From: Bacillota bacterium
GTDB lineage: Bacteria; Bacillota; Clostridia; Christensenellales; SZUA-584
Assembly (NCBI GenBank): GCA_023436115.1
Contig: JAEZKQ010000003.1
Span: 73,846 to 97,845 of the forward strand
Length of the DNA stretch: 24,000 bases
Reading direction: 5' to 3'
Shown here: positions 301 through 15,982 of the stretch, in pieces
How positions within the stretch are numbered: position 1 is the stretch's first letter
How the letters are laid out: each line of letters opens with the position of its first letter
Translations under genes and position numbers: made by a program
The notes under the pieces: model-generated
The model's input: only the letters and a program-made list of their open reading frames with translations
Told to the model about the DNA's origin: nothing
The model's database searches: none

Positions 301-413
301 TTCCGCCACCGACCGATAAGTTTCACCCATTATACCAAAAATATGATATTTCCCGCTTTTTGTAGATTATTGGAATTATCTTATGTATATTGGTAGATAA
401 TTGTAGTTTATTA

Positions 414-422
414 TGTTATAGT
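414..422 (+). promoter_or_regulatory. Putative extended -10 promoter (TGtTATAGT) for the SIR2-like/DUF262 operon
   Basis: TG-n-TATAGT at 414-422 lies about 42 nt upstream of the ATG at 464 in a very AT-rich leader. TTG(G)TAGAT(A/T)ATTG-like direct repeats occur at 360-373, 390-403 and 401-415. No clean -35. Motif reading only. Confidence 0.3.
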
Positions 423-463
423 TAATTATATTTTTGAAATCAATATTTTCGAGGATAGCCAAT

Positions 464-1489
464 ATGGCAAACAAAACTTTTATTATTCTTGGCAATGGCT
501 TTTCAATTAGTCTTATTGAATCAATAAAATTAAACGATAAAATTGATCTTCGTAATTTATTTACAAAAGGAGATGAAGTTGTTTGGCCATTTAGCCACGA
601 TAAAGGCTTTCTGTCAAGGAAATTTTGTGAAAACCTGTGGACTTTAGGAGCCCGGCCAACAATGAGAACTGAGGAGAGCATTAATTTTATTTCCAACTTA
701 ATAACATGCCTAAATGTCTTTAATACTGCTAGTATTAAAAATCCCGACTTTAGACAAAATACAACGAATATATATAGAGAAGCACATAATGAATTATCTA
801 CATATTTAAAACATTTATTTATCCACTATAATTCATTAGTCTCAACAAAAGCTCTCCAAGGAATTATAGATAAATTGCCATTAATCAACTATATTCAGAA
901 TATTATATCGTGCGGCGATGAAGTGATTGTTATTTCTTATAATTATGACATTTTTTTAGAAAGGCTATTACGGATAAAAAAAGTCCCATTTGGTCTTATA
1001 GGCTTTAATAATACTATAAACAAAAGTATAAAGCTCTTTAAGCCCCATGGATCAATAAGTTTCGTAACAAAAAGTCAGACTCCATCTGGCAAAAACTTTA
1101 CTATTAAGGACACATTTGATAGTATTGAGATGAATATTAGTGATTTAAAGCTAGATTATAATTTAATGGAGGACAGATCATTAATTAATGCTATTATTCC
1201 TCCTGCCGGTGATGCTAATAGGCTTGCTCGAGGATGGGTAAAATATATAAGAACTACTCTCATGAAGGAAGTAAAATCTTCATCTGATAAGGATAGTTTA
1301 ATTATATATGGTACATCATACGATCATGTTGATAGAGTCGAAATTGATGAAATTATTACCGAGATTAATTCAGATGTAAATGCTATTTATGTGAATCCTT
1401 ATCCGTCTTCAACTTTTGACTCAGTGCTGAGTAGTATATTTAAAAATTATACACAGCTTAAATCTGGAGAATGCTTATTAGGAGTATAG
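464..1489 (+). CDS. SIR2-like (SIR2_2 / DUF4917-like) protein, putative NAD+-consuming effector
   Basis: The track ORF 434-1489 begins at a TTG. The in-frame ATG at 464 has GAGGA (451-455) 8 nt upstream, so I prefer 464. Motif series typical of SIR2_2/DUF4917 Rossmann proteins: FIILGNGFS near the N-terminus; VISYNYDIFLE (Asn codon 941-943); KLFKPHGS (His codon 1046-1048) about 35 aa after the Asn; and a C-terminal LIIYGTSYDHVD segment. About 28% GC versus about 58% in the flanks. Confidence 0.6.
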   Translation: MANKTFIILGNGFSISLIESIKLNDKIDLRNLFTKGDEVVWPFSHDKGFLSRKFCENLWTLGARPTMRTEESINFISNLITCLNVFNTASIKNPDFRQNTTNIYREAHNELSTYLKHLFIHYNSLVSTKALQGIIDKLPLINYIQNIISCGDEVIVISYNYDIFLERLLRIKKVPFGLIGFNNTINKSIKLFKPHGSISFVTKSQTPSGKNFTIKDTFDSIEMNISDLKLDYNLMEDRSLINAIIPPAGDANRLARGWVKYIRTTLMKEVKSSSDKDSLIIYGTSYDHVDRVEIDEIITEINSDVNAIYVNPYPSSTFDSVLSSIFKNYTQLKSGECLLGV

Positions 1490-1490
1490 T

Positions 1491-2570
1491 ATGAATAAAA
1501 AAAAATATAAGCGCTTTAGTACAAATATAACAATATCAAATTTTTACGAACAGCATTGTTTAAAAAAATTTAATTACGACCCAGAGTATCAAAGAGATTA
1601 TAATGTTTGGGATATTGACCAAAAATCGTTTCTCATTGATACTATCTATAAAAATTTCCCGATGCCTCCGGTTTTTTTAGAACAAAAAATAGTTAAGGGA
1701 AAGACATTTTATGATGTTATCGATGGAAAGCAAAGGTTAAATGCAATCGTAGATTTTATTAATAATAAGTTACCACTTCCAAAAGATTTTGGCGACGATA
1801 TTTATGGAAATTCAAAACTTAATGGAAAGTATTTTAAAGAAGTTTTGAGTTTAGCTGAAAAAGATGATGAAATTTCTGAGTATGTCGATATCTTTTGGAG
1901 CTATATAATTAATATCGAGTATATAGAAAAACCTGATGATAGAATAGTTGATAATATTTTTGATAGATTAAATCGGGGAGGTGAAAGATTAAATCCTGCT
2001 GAATTAAGAAAAGCGAAATACTATGATACTGCTCTATATATTTGTATTGAGGATCTGGCAAAGGAAAGTTGTACTAATAAGTTATTAAAACATCTAGATA
2101 GAGTTAGGTTACAACATATTAGCTTTTTAACCGAAATCTTTCTGTTAATTAAAACAAAGTCAGTTATTAATGGCGTTGAAAAAGATATTGATGAACTCTT
2201 CGAGAAACTCGTCGAAGAAATTGATATGGAAGAAGGTGGTAGAATAAAAGAAGAGGTTATAAAAACAATAAATTGTTTCAACAGCTTTGGGCTTAATTTA
2301 GAAAAATATAAAATTGAAGGAACTAGCCACACTTTTGCTCTATTATATTTAGCACTATATTTAAATAGTCATTCTATTGAAGTTGATAGTGCTATAAAGG
2401 ATAATCTGAATGAGTTTTATACTCTATTGCGAAACCATTCAAATAATCAATTTGTTGAAGTATACTCAAAATCAATGCAATCAGCAAGCAAATACAAACA
2501 TTCAAGAAAGAAGAGGGTTCTGGCATTATTGGGATATCTAGGATTCAAGGATATTGAAGTAGCTATTTAG
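1491..2570 (+). CDS. DUF262 (GmrSD N-terminal, ParB/Srx-like, DGQQR-type) domain protein with no DUF1524/His-Me nuclease module
   Basis: The ATG at 1491 is 1 nt after the upstream TAG (1487-1489), with AGGAG 6 nt upstream. N-terminal region: YQRDYNVWDIDQKSFLIDTIYKNFPMPPVFL...DVIDGKQRLNAI (DGKQR = 1722-1736). It is followed by FDRLNRGGERLNPAELRKA. Both are hallmark DUF262 blocks. The C-terminal 170 aa are helical-looking and carry no H..N..H nuclease motif. Confidence 0.75.
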   Translation: MNKKKYKRFSTNITISNFYEQHCLKKFNYDPEYQRDYNVWDIDQKSFLIDTIYKNFPMPPVFLEQKIVKGKTFYDVIDGKQRLNAIVDFINNKLPLPKDFGDDIYGNSKLNGKYFKEVLSLAEKDDEISEYVDIFWSYIINIEYIEKPDDRIVDNIFDRLNRGGERLNPAELRKAKYYDTALYICIEDLAKESCTNKLLKHLDRVRLQHISFLTEIFLLIKTKSVINGVEKDIDELFEKLVEEIDMEEGGRIKEEVIKTINCFNSFGLNLEKYKIEGTSHTFALLYLALYLNSHSIEVDSAIKDNLNEFYTLLRNHSNNQFVEVYSKSMQSASKYKHSRKKRVLALLGYLGFKDIEVAI

Positions 2571-2602
2571 AAAATCAAATTATTCAGTCACACATACTCC
2601 CC

Positions 2603-2630
2603 CTGCGCCCATCGCGGCGCAGTTTTTGTT
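2603..2630 (+). terminator. Rho-independent terminator after the DUF262 gene
   Basis: Stem CTGCGCC (2603-2609) / GGCGCAG (2616-2622), loop CATCGC, followed by TTTTTGTT. It is GC-rich, unlike the operon it terminates. Confidence 0.6.
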
Positions 2631-2648: not shown

Positions 2649-3818
2649 TCATACCGTCTCTCTCACTTCCCCGCATCCGTTGAACGCCGCAAACCGCGTC
2701 AGCGCGTCCTCCAGCTTGCCTTTCAATGCGCTGTCCGTCTTGCCCTCGGGCCAGAACCGCCGCAAAACAAGCGCATCCCCCTCTTTTACGATCTCGGCAC
2801 GCCCCGCAAAGCCGCTGCCATAAAGCACAGGCAGCACATAATAGCCGTATTTGCGCTGTGCAGCGGGCGTGTATATCTCCCATTTGTAATCAAAACCGAA
2901 AAGCGCTTTGATCAGCCGCCTGTCCCAAAGCATGTTATCCAGAGGCGCCAGAAACTCCAGCCGCTTCTTGTGCGGTTTGTGCAGCTCGTCCATGAGCGCG
3001 TCGTCCTGCGCCAAATAGTAAAGCGTATCGGGTATGCCGTCTACGCTGCACTGATAAATATCGCCGCGTTCCAGCAGCGCCGCAAAAGCGCGGTTTCTTT
3101 CGTCGCTTTTCATACCGCCGATGCCCAGCCACGCGTCGGAAGGCCTGTTCCAAAGCAGCCCCACCGCGCCGATGCGCCGCTTCACCTGCCAAGCCAAATA
3201 CTCATCGTCCGTCGGGTTCGGGTCTTTTTCTTGCAGCAGCTCAGGGCCTAAGTAATCCTCGGCCAGCGCGTAATATTTGATGCTGCCCTTCTTATGGTGA
3301 ATAATCAGCTCGCCCCGAAAATACAGTGTTTCCAGCGCCGCGCGCGAGAGCGTCGTGGGGCTCCAATACCAGTCCACCGTTGTCTTATGCTCAAAATCCT
3401 TGGAGCACGCAAAGCCCTGCTGCTTAATCTGCCGCTTTAGCTGCTCGCTTATTTCGTCCACATGCGTGCGGCTCGCGCCCTGCTCGCTGTGCCATTGCCG
3501 AAAGCGCTTAAAATACGGCCAGTCCTGCATGAGCCACAGGCTCATGTTCTTGTCAAAATAGTCAATGAGCCGCCTGTCCTCATACAAAAGCTCATACAAC
3601 ATGGCCTTGGTAAAGCCCTTTACGCGTGACTGCAGCACCAGCTCCGCGTTCTTGCCGCATACATCGATCGGGTCAAACTGCACACAGCCCGCCTGCCGCA
3701 CAAAATCGCAAACGCCCCGCTTGCCCGAGAATTTGTAGCCGCCCAAAAGCCCCTGCTTTAGCAGCATGAAACGACGCGCCTGTTCGTTTGTCAGCTTGCG
3801 CTCCTGCATATCTTTCAC
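2649..3818 (-). CDS. ycaQ: YcaQ-like winged-helix (HTH_42 / DUF1006) DNA glycosylase, interstrand-crosslink / bulky alkyl-lesion repair family
   Basis: 389 aa. The N-terminus (LTNEQARRFMLLKQGLL...VRQAGCVQFDPIDVCGKNAELVLQSRV) parallels E. coli YcaQ (...LLQIDTINIV...). A Q-F-D triplet at 3680-3672 matches the Q-phi-D catalytic motif described for the YcaQ-like subfamily. Its start overlaps the upstream ABC stop by 4 nt. Confidence 0.7.
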   Translation of the reverse strand: MKDMQERKLTNEQARRFMLLKQGLLGGYKFSGKRGVCDFVRQAGCVQFDPIDVCGKNAELVLQSRVKGFTKAMLYELLYEDRRLIDYFDKNMSLWLMQDWPYFKRFRQWHSEQGASRTHVDEISEQLKRQIKQQGFACSKDFEHKTTVDWYWSPTTLSRAALETLYFRGELIIHHKKGSIKYYALAEDYLGPELLQEKDPNPTDDEYLAWQVKRRIGAVGLLWNRPSDAWLGIGGMKSDERNRAFAALLERGDIYQCSVDGIPDTLYYLAQDDALMDELHKPHKKRLEFLAPLDNMLWDRRLIKALFGFDYKWEIYTPAAQRKYGYYVLPVLYGSGFAGRAEIVKEGDALVLRRFWPEGKTDSALKGKLEDALTRFAAFNGCGEVRETV

Positions 3819-5542
3819 TCCCTGAACTGGCTGTTGTACAATTTCGCGTACTCGCCGCCCCGTGCCAAAAGCGCCTCGTGCGTGCCGCGCTCGGCCACGC
3901 CCTCGTCCCCGATCACGATAATCTCGTCCGCATTGCGTACGGTAGAAAGCCGGTGCGCAATCACCAGCGTCGTGCGTCCTTTGGAAAGTTCCTCAAACGC
4001 CGCCTGTATCTTGGCCTCGGTCACGCTGTCAAGCGCGGAGGTCGCTTCGTCGAGTATGAGTATCGGCGGGTTCTTAAGGAATATGCGCGCAATGGATATG
4101 CGCTGCTTCTGCCCGCCCGAAAGTCGTATGCCCCGCTCGCCCACCTGCGTGTCGTAGCCGTTTTCCATATCGGCGATCATCTCATGTATCTCGGCGCGCT
4201 TGGCCGCCTCGACTATCTCCGCGTCCGTCGCGTCGATGCGCCCGTAGCGTATGTTCTCGCGTATCGAGCCCGCAAACAAAAACACATCCTGAGATACGAT
4301 GCCGATGTTCTGCCTTAAGGAGAGCAGCGTTACGTCTTTTATGTCGTGCCCGTCGATCGTGATGCGCCCGCCGCTGGCCTCGTAAAAGCGCGGTATCAGA
4401 TGGCACAGCGTGGTCTTGCCGCCGCCCGACGGCCCCACCAATGCCAGCGTCTTCCCGGCGTCAATCTTTAAGTTCAGGTGCTCTAATACCGTTGTTTTGT
4501 CGTTATACGAAAAGCTCACGTCCTCAAACGCGATGTCGCCTTTTACGTCTTTTAGCTCCTTGGCGTCCCGTGCGTCGGTGATATCGGGTTGCTCAAAAAG
4601 CAGCTCCCGAAAGCGGTGAAAACCCGCCATACCGCTCGTAAACTGCTCCATAAACTGAGAGAGCTTGCGTATGGGCTGCAAAAACGTACCCACATACAGC
4701 GAGAACGTGATGAGTCCCACATAATCCAGCTCGCCCTGCATAATCAGCCAGCCGCCGAAAGCGATCACCGCCACGCTAAAAAGACTCGTGAAGAAATCCA
4801 CACCGCTCACAAAAATGCCCATTGCCGAATAAAACTCGCCCTTAGAGCGCTTAAAGCGTTCGTTGCTCTCCATGAACTTATCCACTTCATACGCTTCGTT
4901 GGTAAACGCCTTGGCCACGCGCGCACCCGATATGCTGGATTCAAGCCCCGCGTTGATGCCTGCTGTGCGTTCCTTCACGCGCCTAGACGCGCTCATCATG
5001 CGCTTTCGTTGCAGCAGCGTAAACCCTAAGCCCACAGGCACTAAGATAATCAGCACCAAAGCCAGCTTCACGTTGACAGACAGCATCACGATGAACGCGC
5101 CGATGATGGTGATCAGCGATATAAACAGGTCTTCCGGGCCGTGGTGTGCCAGCTCGGTGATGTCAAACAAATCCGTGGTCACGTGGGACATCAACTGCCC
5201 CGTTCTGTTCTTGTCGTAAAATTTAAACGAGAGCTTTTGCATGTGCGTAAACACGTCGCGGCGCATATCCGCCTCCATACGCACCCCCAGCGTGTGCCCC
5301 CAGTACGTCACGATATACATAAACACCGCGCGCAGCAGATACGCCGCCACCAACGCACCCATGATGATAAAGAACGTGTCAAAAAGCTTCGCGGGCAGCA
5401 GCGTGTTCATGGCGTACCGCGAAACCAGCGGGAACGCCAAATCCACCGCCGCGATCATCAGCGCGCAAACCATGTCCAATGCAAAAAGCCGCCAGTGGCG
5501 GCGGTAATACGATACAAAGTGCTTTAAACTGCTTTTCTCCAT
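3815..5542 (-). CDS. ABC exporter, fused permease + ATPase half-transporter (MsbA/type I exporter-like)
   Basis: 575 aa. N-terminal 6-TM-type domain, then Walker A GPSGGGKTT, signature LSGGQKQR, Walker B ILILDEATSALD and H-loop IAHRLST. Confidence 0.9.
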   Translation of the reverse strand: MEKSSLKHFVSYYRRHWRLFALDMVCALMIAAVDLAFPLVSRYAMNTLLPAKLFDTFFIIMGALVAAYLLRAVFMYIVTYWGHTLGVRMEADMRRDVFTHMQKLSFKFYDKNRTGQLMSHVTTDLFDITELAHHGPEDLFISLITIIGAFIVMLSVNVKLALVLIILVPVGLGFTLLQRKRMMSASRRVKERTAGINAGLESSISGARVAKAFTNEAYEVDKFMESNERFKRSKGEFYSAMGIFVSGVDFFTSLFSVAVIAFGGWLIMQGELDYVGLITFSLYVGTFLQPIRKLSQFMEQFTSGMAGFHRFRELLFEQPDITDARDAKELKDVKGDIAFEDVSFSYNDKTTVLEHLNLKIDAGKTLALVGPSGGGKTTLCHLIPRFYEASGGRITIDGHDIKDVTLLSLRQNIGIVSQDVFLFAGSIRENIRYGRIDATDAEIVEAAKRAEIHEMIADMENGYDTQVGERGIRLSGGQKQRISIARIFLKNPPILILDEATSALDSVTEAKIQAAFEELSKGRTTLVIAHRLSTVRNADEIIVIGDEGVAERGTHEALLARGGEYAKLYNSQFRE

Positions 5543-5731
5543 AGTACTCCCCGTCCGATATTAAAAACTTTTATTCAAAGGCTATTATACGCCTGCACCC
5601 ATTGTCTGACAACTCAATGCAGCCCGTATTATTTCAAACCCGTATTATTTCAAACCCTTAACATATTTGCTGTTTTTTGTCCATATTACTCTTTACATCT
5701 GTAGAGCCCATCCCCTACAACTCGGCGACAT

Positions 5732-5806
5732 TCCCCGTAGGGGCGAATTTCAATGCCCGCCCGTTACCGCATCCCGTAGGGGCGGGTTTCCTATGCCCGC
5801 CCGTAT
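5732..5806. repeat. REP-like GC-rich double-hairpin element, copy B
   Basis: Sequence: CCCCGTAGGGGCGAATTTCAATGCCCGCCCGTTACCGCATCCCGTAGGGGCGGGTTTCCTATGCCCGCCCG. Two GGGCG(G/A)(G/A)...CCCGCCC hairpins. It lies in the divergent region between the ABC exporter start (5542, -) and the lrgA start (5893, +). Confidence 0.75.
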
Positions 5807-5892
5807 ATCACACACCTTAAACACCTTTTTATGGCTGTACGGCATCCGTCTTTCATGTATAATAGATTCATTAACGCATCTTAGGTGGTTTT

Positions 5893-6246
5893 ATGAAGTT
5901 CGTGTTCCAACTGTGCATCATACTGCTTATATCGTTCGTCGGTGAAGCGCTGCGTCTGCTCATTCCGCTGCCCATTCCGGCCAGTATATACGGCCTGCTT
6001 CTTATGCTTGTGTGCCTGATCACGAAAATAATAAAAATAGAGCACGTGGATAAAGCGGGCGGCTTTCTGCTTGAAATCATGCCGCTGCTGTTCGTCCCTG
6101 CGGCGGTCGGGCTGATCGCATCATGGAGCGCGCTGGCCCCCATACTGTTGCCCTTGCTAGCCATCACCGCGCTGACCACAGTCATTGTCATGGTGGTCAC
6201 GGGCAAAACCGCCCAGTTTATGCTCAGGAAGGATGACGACAAATGA
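5893..6246 (+). CDS. lrgA: CidA/LrgA family holin-like membrane protein
   Basis: 117 aa, four hydrophobic segments. Family-typical FxGE...P.PxSIxGLLLL...LFVPAxVG pattern. Overlaps lrgB by 4 nt (ATGA). Confidence 0.9.
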   Translation: MKFVFQLCIILLISFVGEALRLLIPLPIPASIYGLLLMLVCLITKIIKIEHVDKAGGFLLEIMPLLFVPAAVGLIASWSALAPILLPLLAITALTTVIVMVVTGKTAQFMLRKDDDK

Positions 6247-6935
6247 AACAGGCTCTTTTTGAATCCGCCTTCTTCGGCGTCGTTATCAGCATCGCGGGCT
6301 ATGCGCTGGGCATGTTTCTTCGAAAGAAGCTAAAACGCAGCTTTGTCAATCCGTTGCTCATATCAGTGATATTCGTTATCGGTGCGCTGCTGCTGTTGGG
6401 CATTGATTACGGTACCTACAACATAGGCGGCCAATACATCTCATATTTTCTGACCCCCGCCACCGTCTGCCTCGCGATACCGCTCTATCAGCAGCTCCAT
6501 CTGCTAAAAAGGCACAAGAAAGCGGTCATCTTAAGCATATTAGCGGGTGTTTTAAGCAGCGCGGGCAGCATACTGGCGCTGGCTTACCTCTTTGGGCTTA
6601 ACCACCAGCAATATGTCACGCTGCTGCCCAAATCCATCACCACCGCCATCGGCATCGGCGTGTCGGCCGAGCTGGGCGGTATACAAACCATCACCGTCGC
6701 GGCTATCATCATCACGGGAATCTTAGGGAACATCATCGCAGAGGGCGTTTTCAAGCTGTTTCGCATCACGCATCCGGTGGCGATGGGCCTTGCGCTGGGT
6801 GTCTCGTCCCACGCGATAGGCACCGCCAAGGCGCTGGAGCTGGGCGAGGTTCAGGGCGCGATGAGCAGCCTGTCCATCGCCGTTGCGGGTCTCTTAACCG
6901 TGGTGTCCGTTTCGTTTTTTGCGATGCTGCTATAA
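6243..6935 (+). CDS. lrgB: LrgB/CidB family membrane protein
   Basis: 230 aa polytopic membrane protein. Blocks: NPLLISVIFVIG..., ...LLPKSITTAIGIGVS..., ...LGVSSHAIGTAKA. Translationally coupled to lrgA. Confidence 0.9.
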   Translation: MKQALFESAFFGVVISIAGYALGMFLRKKLKRSFVNPLLISVIFVIGALLLLGIDYGTYNIGGQYISYFLTPATVCLAIPLYQQLHLLKRHKKAVILSILAGVLSSAGSILALAYLFGLNHQQYVTLLPKSITTAIGIGVSAELGGIQTITVAAIIITGILGNIIAEGVFKLFRITHPVAMGLALGVSSHAIGTAKALELGEVQGAMSSLSIAVAGLLTVVSVSFFAMLL

Positions 6936-7016
6936 TATTTGTTTAAGATGGAACGATTGCTTATATTAAAACAACAATAAAATTATTAATTAGAAAAGGG
7001 CTGTGTAAATACAGAT

Positions 7017-7330
7017 TCACTTTCGGCAGAAGTAAAAGTTTACCCCTCGTAAGAAGTCCTTACTCCAAACGCTTTTTTGGATTACACTACCTGCACTCCT
7101 AATCCTTTCCTTACTCTCTTTTATTTCCATTGATTGCCATGGTTTTTTATGGTATGGTTTATATAGAACATCAAGTAAATTTTTAGCGTCTAAATCAACC
7201 ACAAAAGCTTAGGCGCGCCTTAAGAATCTCTTCACGGTGCAGACCTTTTTGCAGCATCTCTGACATGATGAAGCGGGCTTGCTTATAGTCTAACTTTTAA
7301 ATCTGCGTATTGAATCAAAAGATAAACCTG
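7017..7330 (-). pseudogene. Possible decayed gene remnant (frame-broken minus-strand reading frames), identity unknown
   Basis: Three short minus-strand segments in different frames read as protein-like text: ...FAVTKKTGLSFDSIRRFKS*, MSEMLQKGLHREEILKARLSFCG*, and VVDLDAKNLLDVLYKPYHKKPWQSMEIKESKERIRS.... They sit in an AT-rich, otherwise ORF-poor stretch. No family recognised. Confidence 0.2.
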
Positions 7331-7520
7331 TTTTCTTGGTAACCGCAAAAATCACGAGGCGTAAAAACCGCTGTTTATCACCGCCAGAACTCGTATCGGG
7401 CTTTTGTTCCCCGACCGATTCAAGACGGTATATTTACAGAGAATTAAGCGTAAAATCTTTATTATGGCTAATAAATGTATGAAGCATTTCACATAAATCA
7501 TTATAAGGAGGTTACTGCAA

Positions 7521-8423
7521 ATGAGTGTTGAATGTCTTGTTGATATACCCCGGTTCAAAGACAAGATTGACGAATGCTTCATAAAGCCGGACTTCGCTCC
7601 CAAACACCACCTTTTTCCCGTGGTCAAACGCCACGCACCGCTCGTCGATTCCGCGTTCTGCTATGTTTTCAAGTTCTATCTGGCATATTGGAATAAAGAC
7701 AAAGTGTTTTCATCGGCCTGGATTGCAGACAGCATACTTGAAAACCCATTATTTAAAGTACTGACACCAAAAGCCGATTACACAAAAATACTCGATATGA
7801 TTGCAGCGGCAAAAAACGCTTATGAGAACTTCATGAAAACAGGCGAGCTGACGGAACCGGACATAAAAGCGCTCTTCCGGCTTGGTATGGTCGACAGCTA
7901 TTATAGAAACGGCGAATTGAAGCTGCCGCCGATATCTGCGAAGGATCTATCCGATCTTAAGCACTTAATCAACCTTCTGGAAAAAGAAAAATGGATTGGG
8001 GCCCAGCGTGTCATACTCGACCCGGGTTTTAACGAGGCCGGTTATCTGGTAGAGAGCCCTGCGTGTGATACTGTGTTTGACGACCTGCTTTTCTATATGG
8101 ACAACTCGACGCGACTAGTCTTTGACACCAAGTCGTTTCGCCGGCTTGCCGTCTACTATACTTTATACCGTATTGGCGGGCTTTGCTCTCAGAGCCTGAG
8201 CTGCGATACCGACGTGCCCATAAGCAGGCTTGGCCTGTACTACTCACGGTTTGGCGTTATCTATTCCTTTAACGTTGAGGAGATTATTTCTGAAAATGTA
8301 TTCGATCAGTTTGCCAGATGGTTTATCGATGCCTGCCGACATGAATATATTAACGACCCCACAGTCAGAAGAGCCGCGGAAAAATGCGCGGAGTATTATC
8401 AAAGCAGGTCGCCGATCGGATAA
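7521..8423 (+). CDS. Hypothetical protein with a possible PD-(D/E)XK nuclease-fold core
   Basis: 300 aa. AAGGAGG RBS about 7 nt upstream of the ATG. The segment ILDPGFNEAGYLVESPACDTVFDDLLFYMDNSTRLVFDTKSFRRLAVYYTLY resembles the D...(D/E)xK arrangement (aspartates, then hydrophobic strand + D-T-K) of restriction-endonuclease-like proteins. No other family recognised. Confidence 0.35.
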   Translation: MSVECLVDIPRFKDKIDECFIKPDFAPKHHLFPVVKRHAPLVDSAFCYVFKFYLAYWNKDKVFSSAWIADSILENPLFKVLTPKADYTKILDMIAAAKNAYENFMKTGELTEPDIKALFRLGMVDSYYRNGELKLPPISAKDLSDLKHLINLLEKEKWIGAQRVILDPGFNEAGYLVESPACDTVFDDLLFYMDNSTRLVFDTKSFRRLAVYYTLYRIGGLCSQSLSCDTDVPISRLGLYYSRFGVIYSFNVEEIISENVFDQFARWFIDACRHEYINDPTVRRAAEKCAEYYQSRSPIG

Positions 8424-9973: not shown

Positions 9974-10135
9974 TACTCTATTATTTTATTTTTGCTTATA
10001 ATACTATTCATTTTATAATAAAGTGATGTACATAACCAATAGATATTCGGAATACTTTAGACAAATGTAGAACAATAAATAAATTCCTTTATTCGTTTGT
10101 TTATACGCCATTTTCCTCACGAATTCATATAACTC

Positions 10136-10163
10136 TTGACATTTACAAATATCAATATATACT
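10136..10163 (+). promoter_or_regulatory. Near-consensus sigma-70-type promoter with no obvious downstream gene
   Basis: TTGACA (10136-10141), 16-nt spacer, TATACT (10158-10163). Downstream lie a hairpin (GCCATACA 10199-10206 / TGTATGGC 10233-10240) and only short, non-protein-like ORFs until hppA at 10856. Confidence 0.4.
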
Positions 10164-10855
10164 GTAACTTGGTTGAGGATTTGAATTCTTTTTTCAGTGC
10201 CATACATCGTGACATTATCAATTAAAATAACGTGTATGGCCGTGATAAATAATCATTTTATTTTAGGGAAAGTATTATGGGAGAACTGCTTAAGGGATTT
10301 TCAAACTTGTTATGGCAAAACGGTTTTGGTCCTGTTATCGGGCTTTTACCCGCTATATTTCTCATCAAAAAGCAGTCCCGACCCATGTTTTTACTTCCTT
10401 TTCTCATATCAGACCACTTTTCGTTGACGGCAATAGCCAATGCCAATCATAACACTTTATTTGGAGCAGCTTACGGCAATGTCAGGCTGCGGCCTATTTT
10501 CGGGTGTTTGGTTTGCAAAGCGCATCTGCCTGTCACATAGAAAGTGTTCCTTGCTCAGCAGACCAAAGCTCGTTCGTTTTGTCTGCCACGAGCACCTATC
10601 TATTTCTTAAAGGTAAGAGAGTCAAATTGAATACTTGTGCCCGATTGAATAACCAAGCTTGTATGCTTGTTATGAATTCTGACTGCCTGATTATGGATAA
10701 AGGAGGTTTTTATTAATAAATGGTTATAATAATGACAGTCAGTCGCATAAGTCAAAAGTCTTTCATTTCTTGCCTTGTTATAAAGCTATAATTATTTATT
10801 TTAAAATGCGGGAAAATTTAAATTTTAAATTTTTCTAACTAAAAGGAAGGACAAT

Positions 10856-12943
10856 ATGGATAATTTACTCTTGTTTGAAATTGTTGGTGTTGTTATCTCA
10901 TTGCTGGCCTTTGCTGTTGCGTTATACTTCTATCTTTGGATCAAGAAGCTGCCCAAAGGCACAGCAGACATGGAACATATCGGCATGATGATTAAAAAGG
11001 GCTCCCGGGCTTTTTTGAGAAGAGAGTATAAGACTCTTGCTTGGTTTGTCTTGGTGGCTGCAGTCATTATTTTCGTGCTTCTGCCAACACCTATATGGGC
11101 CGAGAATGTGAATATACTCGAAAATATCGCGATGACAGTTGCGTATATCGCCGGTTCCGTTTTCTCGGCATTAGCCGGAAAGATTGGTATCGAAGTGGCG
11201 ACCATCGCAAACGTACGGTCTGCCGTTGCAGCGAAGACCGGCATTGCCAAAGCGTTCTCTACGGCTTTTAGAGGCGGCGCTGTCATGGGTATGGCGGTTG
11301 TGGGTTCCGCGCTTCTGGGCTGCTCACTGCTGCTGCTCATCACGAACGATGACACAGCCGTTTTAGGATTCTCCTTCGGCGCTTCCACGCTGGCCTTGTT
11401 TGCAAAAGCAGGCGGCGGTATCTTCACCAAAACAGCGGATATCTCTGCTGACCTTGTCGGCAAGGTAGAGCTTGGCTTTGAAGAAGACGATCCGAGAAAC
11501 CCTGCCGTTATCGCAGACAACGTCGGCGACAACGTGGGTGACGTTGCCGGTATGGGCGCAGACCTGTTCGACTCGAACGTTGCCGCGTTTGCCGCAGCCA
11601 CGATCATCGGTATGATACTCAACAGAGTGGACATGGTGCTCTGCTACACAGCTATGGGTCTTTTGGCTTCCATTATCGGCGTTCTGCTCTCTAAAATGGG
11701 CAAGAGCAACGATCCCGGAAAAGCACTCAACAGAGGTACATACATCACGACCGCGCTTTACGCGATACTGACTGCGGGCGCTTCGATCCTCTTCAAATAC
11801 GACTTCCGCTTCTGGGGCGCCACATTCGTCGGCCTCCTCGTGGGCGTTGTGATCGGTCTTGCTACGGACTACTTTACAAACGATGCGAAAAAGCCTGTGC
11901 AGCATGTTGCTAAGTCGAGCCAATCCGGCCCCGCATTCACCATACTGAGCGGCGTGGCCTCCGGCTTCAGAAGCGCATTCCCGGCTTTGCTCGGTATCGG
12001 TATTTCGGCAGCTGCTGCTTACTTCATTTGCTATCCGCTGGGCGGAAACGACCCCGCGCTGTGCACGCAGTATGCGATGTTTGGAATTTCTATGGCCGCT
12101 TTGGGCATGCTGTCCATCGTTGGCATGATTGTGTCCAATGACGCGTTTGGTCCTATTGTGGACAACTCCCGCGGTCTGGCTGAAATGGGCGGACTCGGCG
12201 AAGACGTCATCAAGATCACAGACGAGCTCGACTCAGCGGGCAACACCGTTAAAGCCATCACCAAAGGCTTTGCTATCAGCGCTGCCGGCCTTACGGTTAT
12301 CGCTCTTCTGGCTTCGTTCCTCGAAATCGCGAAGGTTTACAACCCGGATATCACAGGCTTTGATATCATGAATCCGATCGTGTTCTTCGGGCTGCTGGCC
12401 GGTGTGGCTATCCCCGCTCTATTCTCTGCCATGCTGATTATGGGTGTTGACAGAAACGCTCAGCGCATGGTTACTGAAATACACAGGCAGTTTGATGAAA
12501 TACCCGGGTTAAAGGAAGGCAAGCCCGGCGCTTATCCCGAGTATGAAAAGTGCATCGATATCGCCACCAAAGGCGCTATCCGCGAGCTCATACCGGCCGG
12601 TTTAATGGCTATCGTCGTCACGCTTGTAATCGGCTTCTTAGGCGGCATTCAGGCGATCGGCGGCTTCCTCACCGGCAATATCGTGTCCGGTCTGCTGCTG
12701 GCTCTGTTCATGTCCAACTCCGGCGGCACATGGGACAATGCCAAGAAGTACATCGAAGCCGGAAACTTCGGTGGCAAGGGAAGCAACGCGCACAAAGCTG
12801 CTGTTATCGGCGACACCGTTGGCGATCCTTTCAAGGATACAGCCGGCCCCTCGATCAACACGCAGATTACTGTTGTCACGCTGGTTGCCAACCTGACAGC
12901 GGTGCTTTTCAGCTCAATATCTATTTTCGGAAACCTCTTCTAA
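10856..12943 (+). CDS. hppA: Membrane-integral pyrophosphatase, probably the K+-independent H+-translocating subtype
   Basis: 695 aa, about 16 TM segments. Signature blocks: GGGIFTKTADISADLVGKVE, NPAVIADNVGDNVGDVAGMGADLF, DNAKKYIE and GDTVGDPFKDTAGPS. The GNTVKAITKG segment carries the Lys/Thr pair reported (Belogurov and Lahti) for K+-independent enzymes, instead of Ala/Gly. AAGGAAGG RBS upstream. Confidence 0.9.
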   Translation: MDNLLLFEIVGVVISLLAFAVALYFYLWIKKLPKGTADMEHIGMMIKKGSRAFLRREYKTLAWFVLVAAVIIFVLLPTPIWAENVNILENIAMTVAYIAGSVFSALAGKIGIEVATIANVRSAVAAKTGIAKAFSTAFRGGAVMGMAVVGSALLGCSLLLLITNDDTAVLGFSFGASTLALFAKAGGGIFTKTADISADLVGKVELGFEEDDPRNPAVIADNVGDNVGDVAGMGADLFDSNVAAFAAATIIGMILNRVDMVLCYTAMGLLASIIGVLLSKMGKSNDPGKALNRGTYITTALYAILTAGASILFKYDFRFWGATFVGLLVGVVIGLATDYFTNDAKKPVQHVAKSSQSGPAFTILSGVASGFRSAFPALLGIGISAAAAYFICYPLGGNDPALCTQYAMFGISMAALGMLSIVGMIVSNDAFGPIVDNSRGLAEMGGLGEDVIKITDELDSAGNTVKAITKGFAISAAGLTVIALLASFLEIAKVYNPDITGFDIMNPIVFFGLLAGVAIPALFSAMLIMGVDRNAQRMVTEIHRQFDEIPGLKEGKPGAYPEYEKCIDIATKGAIRELIPAGLMAIVVTLVIGFLGGIQAIGGFLTGNIVSGLLLALFMSNSGGTWDNAKKYIEAGNFGGKGSNAHKAAVIGDTVGDPFKDTAGPSINTQITVVTLVANLTAVLFSSISIFGNLF

Positions 12944-14013: not shown

Positions 14014-14484
14014 ATGAGAAAAGCATTTCAACCGATTGTCATGCTCATTATTCTAATATTGGGGCTTCATTTGTTATTATGTGTTGTGCTGTATCCGTCA
14101 GCTAAACCCTATCAACCACCGGAACAATCAAGAGAAAAACTATATCAAGATATTTTTATTTCGTTGCTGCTGCCATACATCCAGAACGAAGTTGACCAAT
14201 ACTATTCGCAATACCTCACAGAGCCCCCTATGGTTGCTCCTTATACAGTTACTGTGCTGAGCACCGCAAGACCAAACGGATATCGGACATTCTGTTTTAG
14301 ACTAAAGCTTCAGGTTAAGTCTTATATAGGGCCGCATATCAGTGTCGGTCTTGATGAGATCACTTTGACTGTAGATGGCTCCGGAAATGTGAAAGTTGAG
14401 AAGTATGAACATATAAAAAGCTATAAGCTGCCCCCAAACTATGAGGATATCATAAAGGAAGGTTATGATAATCCGATTCCTTAA
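14014..14484 (+). CDS. Membrane-anchored/secreted small protein, DUF3888-like
   Basis: 156 aa. N-terminal hydrophobic anchor, then LLPYIQNEVDQYY...PYTVTVLSTARPNGYRTFCFRLKLQVKSYIGPHISVGLDEITLTV. I remember this pattern from the Bacillus/Clostridium DUF3888 family. About 38% GC. Confidence 0.5.
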   Translation: MRKAFQPIVMLIILILGLHLLLCVVLYPSAKPYQPPEQSREKLYQDIFISLLLPYIQNEVDQYYSQYLTEPPMVAPYTVTVLSTARPNGYRTFCFRLKLQVKSYIGPHISVGLDEITLTVDGSGNVKVEKYEHIKSYKLPPNYEDIIKEGYDNPIP

Positions 14485-14673
14485 TATATTTGGCGATGTC
14501 ATAGAAAAATGCAGATAATAAGTTGATCGATTTTGGTTCTCTGGATAAAGTACTGTAAACATATACAAAATGTATTTAGTTAAATAACGACATAACATAT
14601 AGAAGCTTCAACATAATATAACACTATATCCAATTATGTGATATAATAAGCTATACTTTTGTTGGAGTGATGA

Positions 14674-15051
14674 ATGAAAGACAGAACACTGTTGGGTGTC
14701 TATTCAGAACTATATAATCAACTACTTGGTATCAATTTGCCTACGACAGAGATATGGCAATACCCGGGATTTGAAAAACATGTGGCAAAAAAACATAAAA
14801 ACTGCCTATGCTACATAGACAAAATTAAAGAAATAATTAATAATCCCGATTACATAAGTGTTAATAGTAAGATACCAAATAGTATTGAATTTATTAAACG
14901 ATATTCAGACATAATTCTACTATCTGTTAATCTTGATATGAATAATGGTTATTTGTACGTTTCAAGCTTATATAATATAGAAGAAGCAAAACTTGATAGA
15001 AAACGGCATTCTGGTAAACTATGTCAATTATTTGACAAATGTGAATTATAG
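14674..15051 (+). CDS. Small phage/plasmid-type protein, possibly a PBECR (Barnase-EndoU-ColicinE5/D-RelE-like) nuclease domain
   Basis: 125 aa. GGAGTG RBS. The pattern ...GFEKHVAKKHKNCLCYIDKIKEIINNPDYISVN...IEFIKRY...LLSVNLDMNNGYLYVSSLYNI...KLDRKRHSGKL matches my recollection of this family: H..K(R)H, then I..II.NPDY, then Y(V/I).(T/S).Y. About 30% GC. Confidence 0.4.
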   Translation: MKDRTLLGVYSELYNQLLGINLPTTEIWQYPGFEKHVAKKHKNCLCYIDKIKEIINNPDYISVNSKIPNSIEFIKRYSDIILLSVNLDMNNGYLYVSSLYNIEEAKLDRKRHSGKLCQLFDKCEL

Positions 15052-15181
15052 ATGTATAATATCAACAAGAAAACAGTATAATCTTTTACGGATTGTTGAG
15101 GATCGGAAAAGGTGCCCGACACGCCCTAGTGGTTAAAAGGTATGCAGGATACGCCGCCCTGCCAGCAATCCGCGTTTTAAA

Positions 15182-15334: not shown

Positions 15335-15982
15335 CTATATATACTTACTCGCTTCCTTCACACTCAGCGTGCTCAGCTTATTTTCCGCGAGAAAATCTCG
15401 AACCCACTCCGGATTCGTTTTGGAATATTCCCGAAGCGCCCAGCCGATGGCTTTGTTGAGGAAAAACTCTTTCGTACCGCAGTTGCTCTGTATCGCGCGG
15501 CTCAAAAACGCTGTGTCTGTCTTGTCCTTGTATTTGAGCTGAAACAATATCGACACGCGCTTAAGCCACATGTTATCGCTGTGAATCCATCCCGCCACCA
15601 CCGTCTCCTTTGCTTCGGGGTGGCGCGCGCAGATATCTCCGACCACAGTCGACGCGATTAAGTCCACTGTGTCCCACCACGACTTGGTCACGATCAGCTT
15701 TTCCACGTGAATTAAGTCATCTGCTGTCAACAGTCCCTTCGCAGCGATTAAATAATCCACTGCGAGGTACTGAAATTCCCTTTCGGGCTGGTCAAACATG
15801 AGGAAAATAAAATCCCAGTCTGCCGTCTTGTCTTTCTTCTTTTGTTTTAATATCTCGCGGCTCAATTCCGCGCGCTGCGGCTTTTGTATGCCCAGAAAGG
15901 CGAACTGGTTCTTAAGATACGCCGCCATATCCGCCGCTTTCTCTTTGTCCGCTTTTGCATAATACGCTTCAAATAGCTCCAT
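15335..15982 (-). CDS. DNA alkylation repair protein (AlkD/AlkC-like HEAT-repeat glycosylase family, PF08713-type)
   Basis: 215 aa. Blocks: ...MAAYLKNQFAFLGIQKPQRAEL..., ...SWWDTVDLIA..., ...WLKRVSILFQLKYKDKTD..., ...FFLNKAIGWALREYSKTNPEWV. These are characteristic blocks of the DNA_alkylation family. Confidence 0.85.
   Translation of the reverse strand: MELFEAYYAKADKEKAADMAAYLKNQFAFLGIQKPQRAELSREILKQKKKDKTADWDFIFLMFDQPEREFQYLAVDYLIAAKGLLTADDLIHVEKLIVTKSWWDTVDLIASTVVGDICARHPEAKETVVAGWIHSDNMWLKRVSILFQLKYKDKTDTAFLSRAIQSNCGTKEFFLNKAIGWALREYSKTNPEWVRDFLAENKLSTLSVKEASKYI

Follow-up and report, generated by a model that had tools for sequence, protein, structure and literature searches.

A two-gene islet of foreign base composition

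We analyzed a 24,000-nucleotide stretch of DNA (hereafter the window; positions 73,846 to 97,845 of the forward strand of contig JAEZKQ010000003.1) from the genome assembly GCA_023436115.1 of a Bacillota bacterium (Clostridia; Christensenellales; SZUA-584), with a focus on two adjacent genes that encode a SIR2-like protein and a DUF262 protein and that may form an anti-phage defence system. The two open reading frames (ORFs; Table 1) encode proteins of 341 (ORF1) and 359 (ORF2) amino acids. They are separated by a single nucleotide, since the TAG stop codon of ORF1 (1487-1489) is followed by the ATG start codon of ORF2 at position 1491. Given their lengths in DNA of 29% guanine plus cytosine (GC) and the existence of hundreds of homologues, they are not chance ORFs. 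A TTG codon at position 434 was also considered as the start of ORF1 and was ruled out; alignments with homologues start at the position of ATG 464, which is therefore preferred. Each gene has its own ribosome-binding site, GAGGA for ORF1 (8 nucleotides upstream of the start codon) and AGGAG for ORF2 (6 nucleotides upstream). The location of the latter inside the end of ORF1 supports, at the level of sequence, co-transcription and coupled translation of the pair.

The GC content is 0.28-0.30 across positions 401-2400, compared with 0.50 in positions 1-400 and 0.54-0.59 in positions 2801-4400. The pair thus occupies an islet of approximately 29% GC set in a core chromosome of approximately 50-59% GC. 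The candidate terminator, a hairpin of seven base pairs (six of them GC) followed by TTTTTGTT, lies in GC-rich DNA that separates the pair from a convergent AlkZ-like gene. An earlier reading of this DNA, made from the letters alone (the sequence-only reading), had described two ORFs one nucleotide apart, an AGGAG-type ribosome-binding site for each, an AT-rich islet in GC-richer flanks and a terminator, all of which were recovered here, and every motif that it had listed for the two proteins was found at the codons given. Its promoter region fared less well: the candidate site is a weak consensus match (TAGATA-17-TATAGT with TG), and the number of promoter-like sites in the upstream region (18) is not clearly above that in shuffled sequences (12.5 +/- 3.6). 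The upstream promoter is therefore only a candidate. At the islet borders in the window, searches revealed no tRNA, integrase or transposase, nor any direct repeats flanking the islet. We also searched for an empty site using metagenome loci of the AlkZ-like neighbour; the best relatives were 59% identical and their synteny was not conserved, and this comparison was therefore uninformative.

Table 1. Coordinates of the SIR2-like/DUF262 gene pair and associated features in the window
Feature	Positions	Strand	Remarks
Low-GC islet	325..2590	unstranded	approximately 2.27 kb, defined by composition; gene pair as sole content
AT-rich upstream region	325..463	+	left edge of the islet, weak promoter-like site, ORF1 ribosome-binding site
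Promoter-like site	394..422		weak candidate
ORF1 ribosome-binding site	451..455	+	GAGGA
ORF1	464..1489	+	SIR2-like (SIR2_2/AbiH-like) Rossmann protein; predicted NAD+-consuming effector
N160 codon (ORF1)	941..943	+	in SYNYD
H195 codon (ORF1)	1046..1048	+	in KPHGS
ORF2 ribosome-binding site	1480..1484	+	AGGAG, within the 3' end of ORF1
ORF2	1491..2570	+	DUF262/GmrSD_N NTP-binding protein; predicted sensor/switch
D78 codon (ORF2)	from 1722	+	in DGKQR
Terminator-like hairpin and T-run	2603..2630	+	intrinsic type; stem 2603-2622

ORF1 is a predicted defence-type SIR2 protein

ORF1 contains the motifs LGNGFS (residues 8-13), SYNYD (with N160), KPHGS (with H195) and YGTSYDHVD (residues 282-290). Its best Pfam match is AbiH (PF14253; E-value 1.4e-3, residues 96-307, 19.2 bits against a threshold of 30.9), and SIR2_2 was matched at an E-value of 6.3e-3 (17.1 bits against a gathering score of 24.5). 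DUF4917 was not matched in Pfam at E-values up to 1, NCBIfam gave no match, and in PADLOC v2, which has no specific model for this family, ORF1 matched SIR2 models weakly and nothing more. Homology searches identified 657 homologues after clustering at 90% and, with an E-value of 1e-3 or better, 640 representatives of 50% clusters, 100 of which reached 1e-30 or better. Among 40 diverse members of the family, SIR2_2 was matched by 39 (E-values up to 0.01, best 1.2e-8) and AbiH by 12 at the same threshold; no other Pfam family was matched by any of them.

Eight residues are invariant across the alignment of 40 sequences (G10, N11, G12, N160, D162, H195, G283 and S285), and they define the motifs GNG(F)S, (S/T)YNYD, KPHGS and GxSY. 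By comparison with sirtuins, the Gly-rich motif corresponds to the GAGxS loop, N160 to the catalytic Asn in TQNxD, H195 to the catalytic His in HG, and GxSY to the GTS strand. When PDB sequences were searched with a profile, PsSIR2 (8w9l), the SIR2 protein of a SIR2-HerA system, was detected at an E-value of 0.026, and the alignment placed N160 on the Asn of TTNYD and H195 on the His of LHGS.

The AlphaFold2 model of ORF1 has a mean predicted local distance difference test (pLDDT) score of 90.9 and a predicted template modelling score of 0.91. When compared with the PDB by Foldseek, it matched SIR2-HerA (8sub, E-value 3e-8), KomC, ThsA and DSR2, all with a probability of 1.0, and the 50 best matches are mostly defence SIR2 proteins, plus three sirtuin-5 entries. 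ORF1 is a single-domain protein: neither a CxxC zinc ribbon nor an additional domain was found in its sequence, and SLOG, Macro and large C-terminal sensor domains were likewise not found. In Pfam and PADLOC searches there was no match to HEPN or PD-T4-2_B (E-values up to 1), nor to NsnB or NsnC. According to reviews and a phylogenomic study, AbiH and SIR2_2 proteins belong to the immune branch of sirtuins ('SIRim'), which degrades nicotinamide adenine dinucleotide (NAD+). Based on its motifs and model, ORF1 is predicted to adopt a defence-type SIR2 fold and to act as an NAD+ hydrolase, like ThsA, DSR2 and SIR2-HerA.

The sequence-only reading had assigned ORF1 to SIR2_2/DUF4917. The SIR2_2 part stands at the family level and by fold; for the protein itself the SIR2_2 match is sub-threshold, and DUF4917 was not matched. 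Its proposal that the Asn and His form the catalytic pair is consistent with their invariance and with their alignment to PsSIR2, and the structural comparison that it had called for indeed returned defence SIR2 proteins, ThsA and DSR2 included.

ORF2 is a DUF262 protein lacking the nuclease half

ORF2 carries the motifs YQRDY, DGKQR and FDRLNRGGERL and matches the Pfam family GmrSD_N/DUF262 over residues 28-177 (E-value 1.2e-27). No DUF1524 or HNH match was obtained in Pfam at E-values up to 1, and no recognisable toxic domain was present, in agreement with the earlier description of ORF2 as a DUF262 protein devoid of the nuclease half. In PADLOC, ORF2 matched NsnA of the Menshen system (2.4e-31; residues 10-337 on profile positions 48-370 of 385) and PD-T4-2_A (1.3e-17; residues 25-324). 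D78-G-K-Q-R82 and F157-D-R-x-N-R-x-G164, along with other residues, are invariant in 40 homologues.

The structural model (pLDDT 88.3) consists of a ParB-type alpha/beta domain followed by approximately eight helices, which form an all-helical C-terminal domain (about residues 180-350). Its closest fold matches are BrxU (2.3e-4) and SspE (5.8e-4), followed by the ParB, Noc and KorB CTPases. In the analysis of Menshen, the same architecture, a ParB-DUF262 domain with a helical 'ParBDB' part, has been described as a DNA-sensing module. By analogy, ORF2 is predicted to be a nucleoside triphosphate (NTP)-binding sensor or switch.

The two genes form a linked unit with signs of horizontal acquisition

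Loci of the pair were collected from species-representative genomes (80 loci) and by exact protein look-up (five loci). A total of 92 relatives were confirmed among 185,579 species representatives (approximately 0.05%), a count limited by the search pattern. In all 82 loci with room for it, the ORF1 homologue is immediately followed downstream by an ORF2 homologue, which answers in the affirmative the question of the sequence-only reading whether the genes co-occur as neighbours across taxa; the three loci with no visible ORF2 homologue are all interrupted by contig ends. The spacing between the two genes ranges from -17 to +5 nucleotides in 71 of 72 loci, with -4, -8 and -1 being the commonest values, and the codons of the two genes mostly overlap. 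Moreover, pairwise identities within the two families are correlated (r = 0.86, Mantel p = 0.001), as predicted by co-inheritance as a unit. Remote relatives of ORF1 (approximately 21% identity) have no DUF262 partner, and the DUF262-linked clade is therefore a distinct subfamily.

The hosts are distributed patchily over about ten phyla, including Bacillota, Gamma- and Alphaproteobacteria, Bacteroidota, Verrucomicrobiota, Planctomycetota, Nitrospirota, Campylobacterota, Desulfovibrionaceae and Calditrichota. The GC content of the pair is lower than that of its flanks in 67 of 67 loci (0.33 versus 0.44). In Escherichia coli, the pair is present in 27 of 5426 complete genomes (0.5%); RefSeq labels its proteins 'SIR2 family protein' or 'hypothetical protein' and 'DUF262 domain-containing protein', respectively, and one such pair has the accessions WP_000093565 and WP_000404337. 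In the one E. coli genome examined (NZ_AP024126.1, 3426637-3435459; locus L171), it lies on a tRNA-Arg island together with a tyrosine integrase and fragments of transposases. A DEAD/DEAH helicase on the island is frameshifted and a BREX ATP-binding protein is truncated, which indicates a decaying defence island. Plasmid carriage was limited to a single record, a Sulfurovum megaplasmid, and the pair was not found in the phage genome collection. These features point to a horizontally acquired pair that is inherited as one unit.

A separate observation concerns a close relative (locus L086, 59% identity to ORF1), in which the pair adjoins a four-gene minus-strand operon including an OmpA-domain protein; with an actin-like ALP_N/ParM gene also close by, the setting may be that of a mobile element (features 2795-7892 and 11363-12169).

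Comparison with known defence systems

No complete PADLOC v2 system was matched by the pair. PD-T4-2 (Vassallo et al. 2022) is also composed of two genes and combines a stand-alone DUF262 protein lacking DUF1524 with a separate effector; however, its partner is a HEPN protein, whereas in the present pair DUF262 is combined with a SIR2-like Rossmann protein, for which NAD+ instead of RNA is predicted as the target. Accordingly, PD-T4-2 membership was rejected: ORF2 matched PD-T4-2_A, but HEPN/PD-T4-2_B is missing. Menshen (NsnABC; Millman et al. 2022; Zhang-lab analysis 2025) shares an NsnA-type protein and the sensor-plus-effector logic with the pair, but it comprises three genes, with NsnB as ABC-ATPase transducer and NsnC as inPIN-nuclease effector. 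With NsnA matched and both other components missing from the two-gene locus, assignment to Menshen was also rejected. As for Dazbog, DzbA and DzbB were unmatched by either protein in PADLOC at E-values up to 1, and membership was rejected on that ground.

On the effector side, AbiH of Lactococcus resembles ORF1 in being sirtuin-like, about 340 amino acids long and a member of the immune-sirtuin group, as well as its best Pfam match. AbiH acts alone, whereas the ORF1 family has an obligate DUF262 neighbour; this neighbour and the sub-threshold score led us to discard AbiH membership. Thoeris ThsA, DSR1/DSR2, SIR2-HerA (Nezha) and PD-T7-2 have the defence SIR2 fold in common with ORF1, and the last two likewise combine a SIR2 effector with a separate NTPase. 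Their partners are HerA, a P-loop NTPase or, in Thoeris, a TIR protein, while ORF1 is paired with an NTPase of the ParB/DUF262 fold. Neither a TIR-type ThsB, SLOG/Macro domains, HerA nor a large C-terminal sensor is part of the pair, which excludes Thoeris, SIR2-HerA and DSR. The type IV restriction enzymes GmrSD, BrxU and SspE have a DUF262 NTPase domain with DG(K/Q)QR, and BrxU and SspE are the closest solved structures to ORF2; they also have their own DUF1524 His-Me nuclease half, in contrast to ORF2, and killing by the pair would presumably come from the SIR2 protein in trans. Membership in this group was rejected on the missing DUF1524.

A full-text literature search (SIR2 with DUF262, GmrSD, ParB or AbiH, and the E. 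coli accessions) revealed no description of the pairing; subscription-only papers and supplementary tables were outside its scope, and an earlier listing as an unvalidated candidate is therefore possible. The main text of a 2026 'domain-centric' E. coli screen contains no mention of it. The view that the pair is not a named system thus agrees with both PADLOC and the literature. On the other hand, the sequence-only reading had regarded DUF262 as normally fused to a nuclease. Nuclease-less DUF262 proteins with a separate effector have already been reported in PD-T4-2 (with HEPN), Menshen (with NsnB/NsnC) and Dazbog, and the architecture of the pair is therefore less unusual than had been assumed. 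The pair joins a known sensor module (DUF262) to a known effector module (SIR2), and the principle behind such a combination is likewise familiar.

Proposed mechanism

We propose that the pair is a horizontally acquired two-gene anti-phage operon that would work as a sensor-effector system. ORF2, with its ParB-fold DUF262 NTPase and helical DNA-binding-type domain, would recognise invading DNA, possibly base-modified, and switch on ORF1 through an NTP-dependent conformational change; ORF1, as a defence-type sirtuin, would then hydrolyse NAD+ and abort the infection. In other words, the nuclease half of GmrSD-type enzymes may have been replaced in trans by a separately encoded SIR2 protein. DUF262 binds both NTP and DNA, and in GmrSD and SspE the nuclease attached to it is activated, in an NTPase-dependent manner, when modified DNA is recognised; the DUF262 protein of Dazbog is thought to recognise methylated DNA, and that of Menshen has been proposed as a sensor. 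SIR2 effectors with partner NTPases are known with HerA and with the P-loop protein of PD-T7-2, and AbiH and other SIR2 proteins are immune sirtuins.

The folds, the active-site motifs, the obligate linkage, the mobility signature and the defence-type neighbourhoods described below were all obtained in the present analysis. With these in hand, we consider it quite likely that the pair is a defence system of some kind, and the complete mechanism, in which ORF2 senses DNA and activates an NAD+-hydrolysing ORF1, somewhat probable.

Several points weigh against this mechanism. Both Pfam matches of ORF1 itself fall below the gathering thresholds, and the TM-scores of its model to defence SIR2 structures are 0.4-0.5. 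No SIR2-DUF262 fusion protein was found among the best 150 of the 640 representatives; such a fusion would have favoured a physical complex. No other defence gene is present near the pair in the window, where it stands alone in a region of core metabolism. In addition, some SIR2 domains have other chemistries.

In an alternative reading, the pair defends the cell and NAD+ depletion plays no part: the SIR2-like protein might ADP-ribosylate a protein or nucleic acid, produce a nucleotide signal or act as a scaffold, with the DUF262 protein as a toxic NTPase or DNA-binding effector. Sirtuin-fold enzymes do include deacylases and ADP-ribosyltransferases, DUF262 domains hydrolyse NTPs, and the similarity of the ORF1 model to known NADases is moderate by TM-score. 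However, the top structural matches of ORF1 are NAD+-degrading defence SIR2 proteins, the zinc-ribbon module of deacylases is missing (no CxxC), and no toxic domain is recognisable in ORF2. We regard this alternative as rather doubtful, and favour NAD+ hydrolysis by ORF1 under the control of ORF2; here, it is the defence function, the NADase chemistry, the identity of the sensor and direction of signalling, and the trigger that we infer.

Association with restriction-modification systems

Further examination of the neighbourhoods revealed that a type II restriction-modification (R-M) system directly adjoins the pair in 33 of 82 loci (about 40%), usually in the same direction. Loci with such an adjacent, cytosine-methylating system include L001, L012-L018, L021, L023, L027, L032, L041, L043, L044, L048, L049, L053, L054, L058, L059, L061, L063, L066, L069, L071, L073, L074 and L076-L078. 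When the two genes closest to the pair on either side are tallied, C5-cytosine methylases outnumber every other family (20 upstream and nine downstream), and integrases and helix-turn-helix regulators are also represented. A local iterative search detected a C5-methylase in the flanks of 31 of 82 loci; it lies within 1.3 kb of the pair in 30 of them and on the same strand in 27 of these 30. Only two methylase ORFs, both in L070, were found farther out in the 8-kb flanks. L013 and L014 add BsobI with an N4/N6 methylase. The gaps between the pair and the R-M genes are often just 17-100 nucleotides. In L001, a Shewanella locus, the four genes are arranged as M-Bse634I-SIR2-DUF262. The endonucleases include NgoMIV, Cfr10I/Bse634I, NaeI, BsobI, BsaWI, NgoFVII, EcoO109I and HNH types, sometimes with Vsr. 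This association, with varied enzymes and on either side of the pair, was observed in 12 of 30 ORF1 clades defined at 55% identity. PADLOC scans of the neighbouring proteins yielded mostly redundant methylase models, with no gain over Pfam. Overall, the neighbourhoods favour the association with defence genes about which the sequence-only reading had asked, with R-M systems and integrases as frequent neighbours.

It might be argued from this close and recurrent coupling, upstream as well as downstream of the pair, that the pair is not autonomous and instead assists, or forms a second line behind, cytosine-methylating type II R-M systems, the copy in the window being an orphan. Such a module could fire on cytosine-hypermodified DNA that escapes restriction of the CCGG/GCCGGC type, or on R-M inhibition. 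However, dependency on R-M is not obligatory, because about 60% of loci, including the window and the examined E. coli island, have no adjacent R-M system. In addition, the restriction enzyme families vary among loci, defence genes cluster anyway, and a sensor reacting to 5-methylcytosine would attack its own methylated host. We think it improbable that the pair is such an accessory. The sensor-effector mechanism accommodates the coupling in a different way, with an autonomous pair: the NTPase would respond to some property of invading DNA, plausibly a cytosine modification, and activate the NADase, and together with R-M this would form a two-layer defence, in which unmodified DNA is left to restriction and cells whose infecting phage evades restriction are killed by the pair. 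This specific version is tentative, and we give it a modest chance.

The neighbourhoods also bear on the possibility that the pair is a selfish, toxin-antitoxin-like addiction module or serves maintenance of a mobile element, with no role in phage defence. An AT-rich acquired insert with a patchy distribution would fit, and overlapping two-gene operons are typical of toxin-antitoxin pairs; yet these are two large enzymes (approximately 340-360 amino acids) of defence-associated families, found on one plasmid record and in no phage, with R-M systems and defence islands as neighbours, and this possibility seems quite remote. Least credible of all is a housekeeping role as a ParB-like DNA-binding protein regulated by a sirtuin deacylase: the ParB fold of ORF2 and the sirtuin fold of ORF1 would allow it, but the pair occurs in only about 0.05% of species representatives (the pattern-limited count above) and 0.5% of E. 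coli genomes, is always compositionally foreign, lacks the zinc ribbon and groups with defence SIR2 proteins, not deacylases.

Flanks of the pair and other features of the window

In the window, the pair is flanked by the 3' end of a SLOG/YspA-like gene upstream and by the convergent AlkZ-like glycosylase gene downstream; NsnB and NsnC genes were not found beside it, and no TIR or HerA gene was found in the window. The wider surroundings contain an ABC exporter, LrgAB, PadR, an H+-pyrophosphatase and a fab/acc fatty-acid operon. Just left of the islet, a 22-nucleotide direct repeat (ACGCAyCCCGTAGGGGCGGsTT) is present in two copies (227-287) that share 91% identity and lie 39 nucleotides apart; the first of these overlaps the SLOG-like gene at its stop codon, and each holds a small CCCC-GTA-GGGG hairpin.

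A second AT-rich islet (14014-15170, GC about 0.31-0.42) harbours a DUF3888 gene (14014-14484) and a gene for a PBECR3 nuclease of the barnase/EndoU type (14674-15051), directly followed by a skipping-rope RNA motif (Rfam RF02924, 58.7 bits; 15091-15170). It may represent a toxin-type cassette with an associated structured RNA. Each of the two islets adjoins a convergent DNA-alkylation repair gene, AlkZ-like (2649-3818, minus strand) and DNA_alkylation of the AlkD type (15335-15982, minus strand), respectively, an adjacency that may be a coincidence. Two further features were recorded: a region of approximately 850 bp with a GC content of 0.31-0.39 between the PadR regulator and H+-pyrophosphatase genes (10000-10855), in which no ORF above 90 amino acids and no Rfam family at threshold was found, and a 300-amino-acid ORF (7521-8423), located in a stretch of moderately low GC (0.40-0.49), with no Pfam match.

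Implications for SIR2- and DUF262-based immunity

The finding overturns no concept; modular recombination of defence domains is now expected and has been reported by the dozen. The coupling to R-M is its least expected element, and at the operon level the association with cytosine-methylating type II systems offers a testable case of layered immunity. Experiments on the pair are made easy by its natural E. coli copies. Should it be validated, the pair would become a named member of the SIR2 NADases driven by a separate NTPase. It would also present the nuclease-less DUF262 protein as an exchangeable DNA sensor, combined with HEPN in PD-T4-2, with NsnB/NsnC in Menshen and with SIR2 here, and would serve as a compact two-protein model of how a ParB-fold NTP switch relays a DNA signal to an enzyme in trans.

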